Assembly (NCBI GenBank): GCA_963702215.1
Contig: OY969726.1
Span: forward strand, 3,288,609 to 3,352,608
Origin: an uncultured Bacteroidota bacterium
GTDB taxonomy: Bacteria > Bacteroidota > Ignavibacteria > Palsa-1295
Direction of reading: 5' to 3'
Length of the DNA stretch: 64,000 nucleotides
Position 1 is the stretch's first letter, and each line of letters opens with the position of its first letter. Positions 44,109 to 50,499 of this stretch are shown here, in pieces. The notes beneath the pieces are model-generated. The model searched no databases, had not been told where the DNA came from, and worked only from the letters and a program-made list of their open reading frames with translations. Made by a program: the position numbers and the translations under genes.

Positions 44109-44394
44109 GTTCGTTTGAAAAAAGTGAAACCCTCTAAATAGAAGACCCGCGAAACGGCAAAAGGTAACAGCCTTTTCGAAGAATTATTCCCTGAAAATGA
44201 AGCAGCGTTCATGCCGCCCAGTGCCGGAGGCACGCAGTAGCCCCGAAGGGGGGAAGTACCCGCAGCCCAGAGCCTGCCCTCGACCCGATCGCGGGTGGAA
44301 CGAAGTGGAACCCTGGGTACGCAAAGCCATCATAACCCGTTAGCCCTGCAAGGGCGATGTACGCCGATTCAGTCCCGTTAGGGACGGCATATTC

Positions 44395-44567
44395 GTAGCC
44401 CAGTGCGTAAGCGCTGGGATTGGGATTGAAAAAAGATTCCATAGCTCCGTAGGAGCGATATATTCCCCGCGTGATAATATGCCGCTCCTACGGAGCTTGG
44501 GATTCTTTGGCTTTTCGCAACCCAGCGCTTACGCACTGGGCTACGAATATTGCACTCCTACGGAGCT
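44395..44567. repeat. large nested inverted repeat (~65-nt arms) immediately after the last small ORF of the island
   Basis: Arm 1 at 44395..44457 consists of block A (GTAGCCCAGTGCGTAAGCGCTGGG), a spacer, then block B (AGCTCCGTAGGAGCG). Arm 2 at 44483..44544 is its reverse complement, with blocks A and B perfect and the middle divergent. A third B-like copy lies at 44553..44567. Confidence 0.6.
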
Positions 44568-45750: not shown

Positions 45751-48700
45751 TCAACCCTCCATTATCCTAATTTCCTCCTCGCTCAAACCGTAAAGCTGGT
45801 AAACGAGTTTATCGATCTCCGCATCCACGCCCGCGATCTGGCGAGTGAGGAGGGTGCGATTCTGGCCATCGCTCATCTTTTTAAGTTGGTTATGCAGATC
45901 GATTTCCCTTTCAACGTATTTTTCCATCAGCTTTATCTGCTTCGTTGAAACATCTTTTGGTACGGGAATCTTTCGCAAATCGCCGACCGATAATCGCGGA
46001 AAGGCATTCGCTACCATCTTGTTCGAAATGTACGGGTAAATTCTTGAGATTAATGTGGAATCTAAAATTCCCACAAGATATTTCATTGAGTAGTCGGATT
46101 CGGGAAGTGGATTGATGTTGAGGATGGTCTTGTAATTACAATATGTATCCTCCGTGTACGTTGCTTGCAGTGCGTGGGGTTGCTTTCCCGATATTTCGCG
46201 AATCAGAATTCTTGGCCCTTGTAGCCAGTCCATCGTTCGGTAATCGTGAAGCCAGGGGCCGTACTTAATCCACTGGCCTCTCACCCTCTCAAGCTCATAG
46301 CGAGAAACGTCACTACCCGCAAGCTCTGGAAGATATTCGGAAGACAGCTTTTTATCGGCATGAAAAACTCTGTTCTCGATTTGTTGTTTTGTGTGCTTAG
46401 AACTATTGTATGCCTGGCATCCGAGCGAAGCACGCGCGACCGTTCCCAGCGGAATCGATTGCTTTAGGATTTGATCCGCGAGTTTTCCCATAGGATCCAT
46501 CCTTCTCGTCTCAATGATGTGTCCTTCGTTTTTAAACCAATCAATCTGCTTTGCGTGGTATTCTTGCCCGCTCGTAGGATCGGAATCGGCGTCGATAACA
46601 CGCACTTCGTGCGAATCGCTGGCTACTATTTTCGAAAGAAAGACCAGCGCCGTGTTTACGGTTGCGGACTCGAAAACGAATCCTTTGAATGTTACGAGTT
46701 CGTCTATCTGAGTCTTTTCAAGAATATACTTCCTTAAGGACTTGGTAAAGACCTGAGTAAGCCAAGGATTTGGAACGATAAATCCAAGCTTTCCTTCTGG
46801 CTTGAGCAGTTCTATTCCTCGTTCGATAAAAAGCTGAAATAGGTCTGCCTTGTATTCTGCTGTTCCGAAGTGTAATAAATATTTGGCGGTTCTAGCATCG
46901 AACAGGTCTTTACCTATAACCACATACGGCGGGTTCCCAATGACGACATCGAAGCCGCCGTTTCGCATAATATCGGGGAAGGCTTGCTTCCAGTCCATCG
47001 GATTTATTTTGGCGGTGTCCGGGGAATAACCACCCCCTGCCCCCTCCTTGAAAAGGAGGGGGTTGTTGTAGTAATCGGTTCCGATGAGGGAGTTGCCGCA
47101 GAGGATGTTCCGGTCGAGATCGGGGAGCAGTCGCTCGGCGGTGTCGTAGGCAATGCGCTGGGTTCCTCCGTCGCTCCCGCCGCTCTCTCCGCCTTCGAGG
47201 ACTTTGAGCATCAAATTCAGCTTCGCCACTTCCACCGCGTTCCTGTCAATATCGACGCCGTGAATGTGGTCGAGCAAGATGCGCTTCCGCTCGCGCGGGG
47301 AAAGGCGATAATCTTTTTTCGTGGGGTCGGAAGTGGGAATGCGGTCGAGAACTTTCTTTTTTGTCCAGGATTCCGGCTCATTGGCGAGATAGAATTTGAG
47401 ATACCAATCGAGTAAATACTGATACGCTCCGAGCAGGAAGGAACCGGAGCCGCAGGCGGGATCTAAAATTGTGGGTGTGGGACATGCTTTAGCTTGTCCC
47501 TTCTTATCTTTGGACCAAGCTAAAGCATGGTCCACACCCAGCATTTTTCCGACGGTATTCTTCACAATATAATCGACAATATAGCTCGGCGTGTAATAGA
47601 CGCCGCCGGCTTTTTTTACTTCGGGCTTTTCTTCGACGCGGGCGTTGCCGCCTTTCGTCAGCGTGATGACTTGTCCCAGGAACTGCTCATACACGTGGCC
47701 CAGAATATCCGAGGGAACGATATCGAATGCATACGGACTTTCGGGATAATAAAGATGCCTGATGATGTCGGTGAGCACTTTATCGTCAATGGCAAGTCGC
47801 GGGGTGAGCGCGTCGAATCCTTCGCGGCTCTTCTCTTTCCTGAAATGGAAGAGACCGGAATTGAAGCGGTCGTCGGCGGCGCGGAAACGGTTGAGGAGAT
47901 TCTGGTAAACAGAACCAACCACCCCCCGTCCCCCGCCTTGAAAAGGCGGGGGAGTTTTTGTTTTTTGGGTTCCGTCTATGAGATAGCGCAGCCTGGCGTC
48001 GAGGGCAAGGTTCCCATATTGCTCGATCTTTCGGTCCCTCGCAGATGCGGAGCATGATAATGCGGTCGAGCGTAATTTGCACGGCGCTGTTTAGCTCGGA
48101 TTCGGACAGCCCTTTGTTGCGGAGCGCGATATTTTCGGCAAGCTTCTTTCGCCAGGCGATCATATCGGCGAGGAACTGTTTATCGAAGGGCGTGGTGCCG
48201 CGCTTGCCTTTTGCCTGCGCGGCGTATTTATCGAAGCGTCCTTTCCAGACGGCTTCGCGGGAAAACGTTTCCACGAGCCAGTCCCATTTCTCTTCGTACT
48301 GTTCGAAGTTGAAAAATTCGATGCGGTCTTTATAGGGCGCGTCGGTGGGTTTGGGAACGGAAGTAGTTTGATAAACGGCGAATTCCTCGAAATCGGAAAG
48401 CAGTGAGATGGAAAGTCCGGCGCTCCAGGCGTAGCGTTTCAATTGATAGGCCGGCGCGACGTCCGTTGCGAGGTGAACTTTGGGCGCTTTGCATTCGAGA
48501 AAGAATTTCTTCTCGCTGCCCACGCGGAAGGTATAATCGGGAGCCTTCATTGCGCCTTCAATGCGAAGCGAATCCTCGTGGATGACCTCTTTGTAGGCTT
48601 CGGCGAGTCCGGCACGATTCGTCATATCCCATCCGAGTTCCCACCAGAAGGGATTGATAAATTCCTCCCGAAGCTGCGCTTCTTTGTATTGGGCGCTCTT

Positions 48701-48766
48701 ATAGGATTCGCGGTGATCGCGAAACCGCTCGACGAGATCCTGAATTGTGCGAGGAAACATGTACAA
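45751..48766 (-). CDS. Type IIG restriction-modification enzyme (MmeI/Eco57I-like): N-terminal endonuclease, gamma-class N6-adenine methyltransferase and C-terminal target-recognition region, split by a frameshift
   Basis: ORF 47786..48766 gives the N-terminal nuclease domain (FINPFWWELGWD...LDRIIMLRICE). In a -1 frame it continues as DRKIEQYGNLALDARLRYLIDG...VVGSVYQNLLNRFRAADDRFNSGLFHF into ORF 45751..47922 (motif I DPACGSGSFLLGAYQ, motif IV DVVIGNPPYV, conserved tail LVYQLYGLSEEEIRIMEG). There is an extra G in the GGG run near 48036. Confidence 0.8.
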
Positions 48767-49104: not shown

Positions 49105-50499
49105 TTATGCCCCGTATTTCTCCGGCCACAGCGCCTTCAATCGTTGCAGAATCGTCTTTTCGCGGCCTTGCTCGGTGGGGTGGTAGAAGACTTTATCCTG
49201 GAGCGATTCTGGTAGATACGTTTCGCCTTTGGCGAAATGTCCGGGCTCGGAGTGGGCATAGCGGTAACCTTCGTGGTAACCTAATTCCTTCATGAGCTTT
49301 GTTGGCGCATTGCGGAGATGAAGTGGCACCGGCTGGTCGGGATTTTGGCGGGCTTCTTCCATTGCCGCGCCGATGGCAACGGTCGTCGCATTGGATTTGG
49401 CCGCGGATGCGAGATATGCAACCACCTGCCCGAAAATAAGCTGCGCCTCGGGGTAACCGACGGCACGGACGGCATCCCAGCAGGCCGTGGCGAGCAGGAG
49501 CGCATTGGGATCGGCATTGCCGATGTCCTCGCTGGCGAAGATAATCATGCGGCGGGCGATGAATTCCAAATCCTCGCCGGATTCGATCATGCGGGCGCAC
49601 CAATAGAGCGCGGCGTTGGGATCCGATCCGCGCATGGATTTGATGAAGGCACTGATGATATTATAATGCTCCTCGCCGGCTTTATCGTAACGGGAAGCTT
49701 TTCGCCCGAAGGCGGCTTCGATGGTTTCAACGGTAAGGCCGAGCGAGGACGCTCGACCTACGCGTAGGTCGGTCGTCCTCGCCCGACTCTCCGGTTCTGC
49801 AAGCTGCACGGCGAGTTCCAGGGCGTTCAGCATCTTGCGAGCATCGCCGCCGGAAAGGGCCATGAGGGCGCGGCGAACATCTTCGGAGAGCGTAATGTCG
49901 AGCGATTTTAGTTCTTCGTCTTCTTTTAAGGCGCGGTCGAGCAGCGTTTCCAAATCTTCGCGTGAGAGACGTTCGAGCACGAAAACGCGGGCGCGGGAAA
50001 GCAGCGGCGAGATAACTTCGAAGGAGGGATTTTCCGTCGTCGCGCCGATAAGAGTTACCACACCGTGCTCGACCGCGCCCAAAAGCGCATCTTGCTGCGA
50101 TTTCGAGAAGCGGTGGACTTCGTCAATAAAAAGCACGCTCCGGTCTTCGGCGGTCGTGTTCGCTTCGCGCGCTTGTTCGATAGCCTCGCGCAAATCCTTG
50201 ACTCCGGCGCTGATGGCCGAAAGCGAAAAAAATGGCGCGCGGACCGAGCGAGCGAGAATATTCGCAATCGTCGTCTTGCCGGAACCCGGCGGACCCCAAA
50301 AGATCATCGAGTGCAGCTTGCCGCGCTCGATCATCATGCGGAGCGGCTTTCCTGGACCGACGAGCGCGCGTTGCCCCACAACTTCGTCTAAGGTTCGCGG
50401 GCGCATTCGTTCCGCGAGGGGAAGGAAGGAATGTGGATGGGTAAGCGCTAATGGGTCGGTTTCCGAGCATTCGAGCTTTGGTTGCTTTTGTCGTGGCAT
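49105..50499 (-). CDS. rarA: replication-associated recombination protein A (AAA+ ATPase MgsA/RarA)
   Basis: Walker A GPPGSGKTT, Walker B VLFIDEVHRF, and a MgsA C-terminal domain. Confidence 0.85.
   Translation of the reverse strand: MPRQKQPKLECSETDPLALTHPHSFLPLAERMRPRTLDEVVGQRALVGPGKPLRMMIERGKLHSMIFWGPPGSGKTTIANILARSVRAPFFSLSAISAGVKDLREAIEQAREANTTAEDRSVLFIDEVHRFSKSQQDALLGAVEHGVVTLIGATTENPSFEVISPLLSRARVFVLERLSREDLETLLDRALKEDEELKSLDITLSEDVRRALMALSGGDARKMLNALELAVQLAEPESRARTTDLRVGRASSLGLTVETIEAAFGRKASRYDKAGEEHYNIISAFIKSMRGSDPNAALYWCARMIESGEDLEFIARRMIIFASEDIGNADPNALLLATACWDAVRAVGYPEAQLIFGQVVAYLASAAKSNATTVAIGAAMEEARQNPDQPVPLHLRNAPTKLMKELGYHEGYRYAHSEPGHFAKGETYLPESLQDKVFYHPTEQGREKTILQRLKALWPEKYGA

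Follow-up and report, generated by a model that had tools for sequence, protein, structure and literature searches.

A palindrome read in frame before motif I of an Eco57I-like type IIG restriction-modification gene, and its relation to a RAYT-associated REP family

Repetitive extragenic palindromic (REP) sequences arranged as doublets that form hairpins were defined as REPINs, together with the REP-associated tyrosine transposases (RAYTs), by Bertels and Rainey in 2011 (PMC3116915). Di Nocera et al. (2013, PMC3733652) described GTAG-tagged REP families with stems of 5-13 bp, including GTGG head variants in Opitutus terrae, and reported GTAG-type REPs inside genes, mostly dimers encoding 20-30 residues (for example, GTAG-20 of O. 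terrae and the uvrA dimers), which they likened to the in-frame Rickettsia palindromic elements (RPEs). The in-frame insertion of a REP is therefore a phenomenon already known, and a rare one. In the present study, we analyzed a palindrome in a 64-kb stretch (hereafter, the window) of contig OY969726.1 from an uncultured Bacteroidota bacterium of the Ignavibacteria (assembly GCA_963702215.1). The palindrome is translated, on the minus strand, just upstream of the S-adenosylmethionine (AdoMet)-binding motif I of a gene for an Eco57I-like type IIG restriction-modification enzyme. With a probability of roughly 0.88, we regard it as a REPIN that belongs to a RAYT-associated REP family and entered the gene in frame before motif I, a case that fits the description given in PMC3733652.

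The palindrome consists of arm 1, TGGGTGTGGGACATGCTTTAGCTTG (47472-47496), a 19-nt spacer, and arm 2, CAAGCTAAAGCATGGTCCACACCCA (47516-47540). An earlier reading made from the letters alone (the sequence-only reading) had given these arm sequences, coordinates and spacer, all of which the sequence bears out. However, it counted 25/26 near-perfect arms, whereas the ungapped complementarity is 23/25, with two mismatches. A repeat finder lengthened the arms to 32 nt (47465-47496 and 47516-47547, 88% complementary). When the window was dinucleotide-shuffled 100 times, two matches were never obtained. The RNA fold of a 103-nt segment has a free energy of -48.3 kcal/mol, against -22.7 +/- 2.9 for shuffled sequences (z = -8.7), and the DNA fold of the palindrome gave z = -8.8. 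Thus, the palindrome is real and far above chance. Each arm region also forms a small hairpin of its own, GGGACATGC-TTTA-GCTTGTCCC in unit 1 and GGACCATGC-TTTA-GCTTGGTCC in unit 2. A unit consists of a GTGG head, a stem of 9 bp that includes one T.T mismatch, and a loop, TTTA; its 14-nt core is CATGCTTTAGCTTG. The two apparent mismatches between the arms are compensated changes within each arm, and thus each arm is a self-folding hairpin with the anatomy of a REP. The parts of the element are as follows.

47473-47539, no strand: the whole REPIN, an inverted REP doublet of 67 nt with the extended heads GGGTGTGG ... CCACACCC
47477-47535: the REPIN from GTGG to CCAC, 59 nt, with the same architecture as two REPINs of Kapaibacterium locus L004
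47477-47500, plus strand: REP unit 1, with head GTGG at 47477-47480, hairpin at 47479-47500 and core CATGCTTTAGCTTG at 47483-47496
47501-47511: the inter-hairpin spacer TTCTTATCTTT, 11 nt, T-rich; on the coding strand AAAGATAAGAA, inside SKDKKG
47512-47535, minus strand: REP unit 2, read on the minus strand as GTGG-ACCATGC-TTTA-GCTTGGTCC, with head at 47532-47535 and core at 47516-47529

Both units are imperfect palindromes of 20-40 nt with stems in the range of 5-13 bp, as described for REPs; both carry the GT[A/G]G head in the form GTGG; and the two together form one long hairpin, as an inverted doublet does. The extragenic location usual for REPs and REPINs is not shared by the window copy, which is translated in frame within the Eco57I-like gene. 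Since exceptions have been documented (PMC3733652), the intragenic site is compatible with membership and does not exclude it. No target-site duplication, as expected for a miniature inverted-repeat transposable element (MITE), was found at the flanks, where AAAATTGTG precedes GGTGTGG and CAGCATTTT follows CCACACC. A search of Rfam with the REPIN returned only meaningless sub-threshold matches to microRNA-like hairpins, and a scan of 47200-48200 on both strands with an intrinsic-terminator consensus did not call the REPIN, which is followed by only 4-5 T's past a 4-nt gap. The suggestion of a nicking site in the sequence-only reading is reasonable by analogy, as REPs are substrates cut by RAYT HUH nucleases.

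We scanned one genome per species (596 Gb, two strands) with the pattern TGTGGNNCATGCTTTAGCTTG, which has 19 specified bases, and found matches at no fewer than, that is, at least 119 loci, compared with approximately 4 expected by chance. By record title, the matches listed include approximately 85 from Acidobacteriota (Bryobacterales, Solibacteraceae, Terriglobia and Acidiferrales), 18 from Ignavibacteriota/Kapaibacterium, approximately 9 labelled Bacteroidota (two of them Hymenobacter isolates), 5 from Chloroflexota and 3 others. Among related genomes, each of which has many loci, Kapaibacterium SMAG_U5859 has L004, L013, L059, L076 and L084. The consensus derived from the flanks is a GTGG head followed by XY-CATGC-TTTA-GCTTG-Y'X', in which XY and Y'X' vary jointly (GGGAC...GTCCC, GGCGC...GCGCC and GGGGC...GCCCC are examples). 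Among 201 distinct units, positions N5 and N22 are paired in 196, compared with 94 after shuffling (C-G in 94, G-C in 85 and A-T in 10), and N6 and N21 in 193, compared with 149. The fetched loci contain 51 inverted doublets with the heads outward and spacers of 8-106 nt. Those of Kapaibacterium/Ignavibacteriota are 53-61 nt long with heads GGTGTGG...CCACACC, and the two of L004 are 59 nt with an 11-nt A/T-rich inter-hairpin spacer, like 47477-47535 of the window. Furthermore, the partner units of the doublets, which the search pattern did not constrain, also end in CCAC (the complement of GTGG). The matching architecture, spacer included, argues that the whole palindrome is one member of the family, and not gene sequence with a duplicated arm. 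A strict pattern for the Kapaibacterium-type REPIN had no match in metagenome contigs.

The family is overwhelmingly extragenic (approximately 98% of 166 elements in the fetched loci), and its extragenic copies often begin directly after a stop codon. Only two other copies were found in frame within convincing genes.

L056, 1769-1788: a single REP encoding GKLKHAPQ in a UbiE/COQ5 methyltransferase gene (Pfam, 209.6 bits)
L088, about 1040-1108: a REP doublet encoding VGYALACPEKPSETTVGKLKHAPQ, between a coiled-coil region and an S-adenosylmethionine-dependent methyltransferase domain

Long open reading frames (ORFs) that span family members in GC-rich loci of Acidobacteriota were mostly discarded as apparently spurious frames on the antisense strand. 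In Promineifilum and Ardenticatenaceae (Chloroflexota), the REPs form head-to-tail tandem arrays with a period of 30-32 nt in place of inverted doublets.

L005, 147-263: tandem array
L045, 6805-6900: tandem array
L041, 1372-1484 and 7079-7128: tandem arrays
L025, 6467-6724: tandem array with a period of 84 nt

A literature search for the core CATGCTTTAGCTTG found, within the library covered, no paper containing the sequence, and the REP/RAYT family of Ignavibacteriota/Kapaibacteria and Acidobacteriota, which are little-studied soil phyla, may be undescribed.

A motif search across all of the loci found one Y1-transposase-like ORF, of 211 aa, in locus L013 of Candidatus Kapaibacterium. It scored 87.2 bits on the NCBIfam model NF047646, "REP-associated tyrosine transposase" (cut-off, 80 bits), matched Pfam Y1_Tnp, and is flanked by a REP doublet ending 2 nt before the ATG and by a REP lying over the stop codon. 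A protein search yielded P0122, which is 71% identical to the L013 RAYT, matches Pfam Y1_Tnp, and contains the HUH motif as HIH in MPNHIHLLF as well as YILLNP. In a short public contig (L120) encoding a protein identical to P0122, the gene is flanked by three REP units of the family; GTGGCACATGCTTTAGCTTG and GTGGAGCATGCTTTAGCTTG overlap its start and stop codons, and the REPs share the extended GGTGTGG head with the arms in the window. Thus, at both L013 and L120, the RAYT gene lies between REPs of its own family, as expected for a cognate RAYT. Judging from the matching database records, the genome of the window very probably encodes P0122 as its cognate RAYT, and the RAYT gene is apparently single-copy and separate from the REPIN. 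The RAYT gene takes its signals from the REPs beside it: at L120 578-597, the ATG within the REP core (aagcATGctcc) serves as the start codon, and at L120 1217-1236 and L013 3925-3961 the TAA in the REP loop (gcaagcTAAagc) serves as the stop codon. The RAYTs of Hymenobacter latericus and Roseilinea (L125 and L126), with 43-46% identity, are flanked by different, GTAG-type REPs.

The features of the window that concern the translated product are listed below.

47473-47538, minus strand: the 22 REPIN codons, G129-P150 of a 723-aa ORF, GVDHALAWSKDKKGQAKACPTP, in place of the usual 12-residue linker
47437-47463, minus strand: AdoMet-binding motif I (Pfam), DPACGSGSF, three residues downstream of the REPIN, with the invariant D154, A156 and G158-G160
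45751-48766, minus strand: the host gene for the Eco57I-like type IIG restriction-modification enzyme, with HSDR_N nuclease, Eco57I/N6_Mtase and TaqI_C domains

The minus-strand translation in the sequence-only reading is correct; with its surroundings it runs ...GKML GVDHALAW SKDKKGQ AKACPTP TIL DPACGSGSF, so that the three residues TIL lie between the element and motif I. A conserved helix precedes the REPIN-encoded residues and strand beta-1 follows them. When aligned with 60 and 70 homologues, the 22 residues had a counterpart in 0/70, and the best non-self homologues are only approximately 55-59% identical. Had distant homologues shown these residues without a palindrome in their DNA, this would have spoken against an insertion; the alignments gave no such case. 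Thus, of the options named in the sequence-only reading (a recombination site, a nicking site or a further in-frame inserted element), the last is upheld by the homologues, and the element is now recognizable as a doublet of a REP family with many loci in other genomes; the hairpin nature of each arm, the REP/REPIN family and a frameshift upstream in the host gene had all been missed. In homologues, the stretch between NTVGKLL and ILDPACGSGSF is typically 12 residues, EGKTPKQVSKLR, whereas in the window it is 23 residues, GVDHALAWSKDKKGQAKACPTPT, with essentially zero identity to any homologue. The 36 nt of the ancestral linker have been lost, for a net gain of 33 nt. The G+C content of the region is 0.49-0.50, compared with 0.53-0.55 in the surroundings.

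In an AlphaFold2 model of the 723-residue ORF made with 55 homologues (mean pLDDT [predicted local distance difference test] 83.9; pTM [predicted template modelling score] 0.82), the helix 113-128 and the strand 152-154 are confident, while residues 131-150 form a block with pLDDT 54-60, compared with 87-94 on either side. The 22 residues are therefore predicted to lie in a low-confidence surface loop. CamA (7LNI), the closest solved relative, has a linker 10 residues shorter, and the linker is one of two internal hot spots of length variation in the family, with at least 8 extra residues in 15/71 sequences. The 67-nt element has exactly one stop-free frame in each orientation, which by its symmetry reads GV(G/D)HALA(C/W)...QAKA(W/C)(S/P)TP in both. 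As one frame of three is open and the net length must also be a multiple of three, approximately 1 in 9 random intragenic insertions would keep the ORF open.

Compared with the described REPIN/RAYT systems, the present one has the inverted units with a spacer in a long hairpin, the GT[A/G]G head, a family with many copies across genomes and a REP-flanked gene for a single-domain Y1/HUH protein. It differs in that the window copy is intragenic and translated, the head is GTGG and not GTAG, the hosts are Ignavibacteriota/Kapaibacteria-like bacteria and Acidobacteriota and not the well-studied Proteobacteria, and the 14-nt core occurs in several phyla. The intragenic GTAG/CGTC REPs (PMC3733652) are also in-frame dimers of 20-30 residues within conserved proteins, with a GTGG variant and, often, hosts in DNA metabolism; however, the window REP is of a different sequence family, its host is a type IIG enzyme, and the linker was replaced, not extended. 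The TnpA proteins of the insertion sequences IS200/IS605 resemble the RAYT in the Y1 HUH fold, the HUH and Tyr motifs, the recognition of single-stranded hairpin ends and the lack of target duplication, whereas the mobile unit here is a gene-free, symmetric REP doublet and the RAYT gene is separate from it. MITEs such as Correia and Nezha are likewise small and non-autonomous, with inverted ends, and occasionally lie within ORFs. Unlike the window element, which has self-folding REP ends and no duplication, they stem from insertion sequences of the DDE type and are bounded by terminal inverted repeats and target-site duplications. The RPE-1 elements are approximately 100-150 bp, specific to Rickettsia, and have no demonstrated RAYT partner, and no kinship in sequence with the window element is expected. 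At 59-67 nt, the RAYT-linked window element is outside this size range, and it was set apart from RPEs on the basis of their description, although RPEs are also selfish palindromic repeats lying in frame within genes as surface-exposed segments (PMC3733652).

A likely course of events, which we infer by analogy with characterized RAYTs and with TnpA of IS200/IS605, is that the RAYT, an HUH/Y1 enzyme, would recognize the folded REP hairpin in single-stranded DNA, cut beside the GT[A/G]G head and move the doublet in trans. One REPIN copy would then have occupied the DNA for the linker that joins strand beta-1 to the helix after the (Y/F)YTP motif, displacing the usual 36 nt. The reading frame may have survived because the element has one stop-free frame per orientation and the net change was +33 nt. 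The insertion would not have been purged if the fold tolerates a surface loop of 22 residues, that is, if it was close to neutral. The direction and the timing of this event are likewise part of the proposal. The REPIN reading explains an odd coding palindrome and adds a clear case of a selfish hairpin translated as a protein loop right beside a cofactor-binding motif. Annotators should take such segments neither for features of the protein family nor for recombination switches, and the core CATGCTTTAGCTTG could serve as a marker in surveys of REPINs beyond Proteobacteria.

Several points weigh against this interpretation. The window contains only one doublet of the family, and the assignment of P0122 to its genome was made through matching database records and not by sequence continuity. 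P0122 scored 69.4 bits on NF047646, below the 80-bit cut-off, although this was the only hit. A search of 5.8 billion proteins returned no closer homologue (above 55%) except the gene itself, and a 27-nt flank pattern representing the empty site had no match in metagenome contigs. With neither an empty site nor a closer homologue in the databases searched, the insertion event is suggested by distant homologues only. The element replaces the ancestral linker, and hence it is no simple insertion. Finally, the frameshifted host gene may be dead, and the preservation of the frame may be partly luck (approximately 1 in 9 a priori).

This last point leads to the first alternative, in which the REPIN entered a gene that was already dead and thus effectively non-coding DNA, so that the open frame reflects chance and not selection for a tolerated loop. 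As assembled, the host gene consists of two overlapping ORFs, 47786-48766 and 45751-47922, because the run at 48036-48038, GGG, has one G too many (the DNA reads GAGGGAC, while GAGGAC and the peptide ICEDRKIEQYG would be expected from homologues). This +1 frameshift, upstream of the palindrome by approximately 500 nt, may be either a genuine mutation that made a pseudogene or a homopolymer error of the assembly. The downstream ORF matches Pfam Eco57I (138 bits), N6_Mtase (78 bits) and TaqI_C (53 bits) and also MmeI_Mtase; the upstream ORF has a weak match to HSDR_N (23.3 bits, below the 25.1-bit cut-off). When one G is deleted, a product of 1004 residues is obtained that aligns end to end with homologues of approximately 970 residues. 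The set of domains and the full-length alignment after this correction identify the host as an Eco57I-like type IIG gene, in which one polypeptide combines a nuclease at the N terminus with a gamma-class N6-adenine methyltransferase and a TaqI-like specificity domain. The host gene contains a second in-frame insertion that is absent from 70 homologues and encodes KTKTPPPFQGGGRGVVGS, with NLALDA nearby.

47929-47953, plus strand (coding strand minus): a hairpin, TCCCCCGCCTTGAAAAGGCGGGGGA then GTTTTTGTTT, with an 11-bp stem, encoding KTKTPPPFQGGGRGVVGS

This hairpin scores as an intrinsic terminator on the antisense strand, and CCCCC..GGGGG hairpins similarly encode insertions in the homologue P0024 (L121). 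The split of the gene and the chance of approximately 1/9 for an open frame give insertion into a dead gene some weight. However, apart from the single G, 1004 codons are open, the alignment runs from end to end, and the invariant catalytic motifs are intact; the frameshift lies in a short G run, where an assembly error or a very recent mutation could account for it; and the element lies exactly in the most length-variable loop of the family. The otherwise intact codons together with the second palindromic insertion, likewise in frame and stop-free, argue that the host gene was functional when the REPIN arrived. We therefore consider the dead gene unlikely, though it is the alternative to be taken most seriously.

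A second alternative is that the hairpin has been kept for a function in the host, such as attenuation or stabilization of the mRNA of a potentially toxic restriction enzyme, or an on-off switch operated by excision or cleavage. The mRNA hairpin of -48 kcal/mol is the most stable 90-nt window of the host gene, neither REP unit is damaged (their stems are perfect, and the 14-nt core is matched with 0 mismatches), unrelated hairpin insertions recur at the same linker among homologues, and an action of REPs on transcripts has been reported (PMC3733652). However, the REPIN was neither called by the terminator scan nor matched in Rfam, approximately 98% of the family members in the fetched loci are extragenic, and a permissive loop that filters random insertions explains the recurrence equally well. 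A function of this kind seems improbable to us.

It is far less probable still that the palindrome is of local origin, namely, that a template switch or a fold-back error in replication copied one arm in inverted orientation with no mobile element involved. This was suggested by the MAFFT alignment, which sets the extra residues mainly over one arm (VDHALAWSK), and no target-site duplication is visible; however, Y1/HUH transposition is not expected to leave one. The arms, the GTGG heads, the unit hairpins and the 59-nt doublet all match a family present at 119 or more loci and flanking a RAYT gene, an architecture that a local duplication would not recreate, and the template-switch origin was rejected once the REP family and the RAYT had been found. 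An assembly artefact from mis-joined or fold-back reads is hardly credible. In its favour, the genome is a single 3.58-Mb contig, probably from long reads, with at least one suspicious homopolymer indel nearby. Against it speak the REP family and the RAYT; moreover, this short, in-frame element has the canonical form of its family, with an asymmetric 11-nt spacer and arm-specific compensated stems, whereas fold-back artefacts are long and perfectly symmetric.

Returning to the linker as an insertion site, we examined six homologues with extra residues between GKLL and ILDPACG: L121 (P0024), L122 (P0008), L123 (P0047), L124 (P0038), L127 (P0032) and L128 (P0076). In all six, the extra residues are encoded by self-complementary or repeat-like DNA. 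One linker contains a REP, GTAG-GGGCGGGC...GCCCGCCC, and others contain CCCCCTT...AAGGGGG hairpins; the linker of L124 contains GTAGGGGCGGGCCTCAGCGCCCGCCC, that of L122 a nested perfect palindrome (approximately -53 kcal/mol), and that of L128 a common CHCEERSDEAIS-type repeat. In L121 and L127, a second loop approximately 50 residues downstream shows the same pattern. In 3/7 homologue genes and in the gene of the window, no other 90-nt segment of the gene folds as stably as the linker. It is conceivable, and we put it forward only tentatively, that the linker before motif I and this second loop are recurrent landing pads for unrelated palindromes of the REP/REPIN type in many phyla. If the recurrence exceeds what a permissive loop would be expected to give, it would point to a target preference or to selection. 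Selection could act, for example, through hairpins that damp the expression of restriction genes recently gained by horizontal transfer.

One and the same 14-nt core, with the GTGG head, is common to Acidobacteriota, Ignavibacteriota/Kapaibacterium, Chloroflexota, Bacteroidota (including the Hymenobacter isolates) and a few others. As a rule, a REP family is confined to one lineage, and RAYT/REPIN systems are generally described as vertically inherited. If the core is truly shared across phyla, this would imply horizontal spread of the RAYT/REPIN system. RAYTs at 43-46% identity use other REPs and do not explain the sharing of the core. This sharing and the recurrence of palindromes at the type IIG loop are both leads worth following.

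The window holds two further sets of REP-like elements.

49729-49796: a head-to-head pair of GTAG-type REPs, GTAGGTCGAGCGTCCTCGCTCGGCC and GTAGGTCGGTCGTCCTCGCCCGAC, inside the MgsA/RarA ORF (49105-50499, minus strand)
44379-44567, intergenic: a cluster of nested palindromes, including GTAG-CCCAGTGCGTAAGCGCTGGG and AGCTCCGTAGGAGCG units

The pair in the MgsA/RarA gene is translated: the AAA_assoc_2 region of this replication-associated ATPase includes the in-frame residues ...ESRARTTDLRVGRASSLG..., which makes the pair another intragenic REP dimer, of a different family. The units at 44379-44567 look like further REP families and, counting these GTAG units, the window holds at least three different REP-like families.

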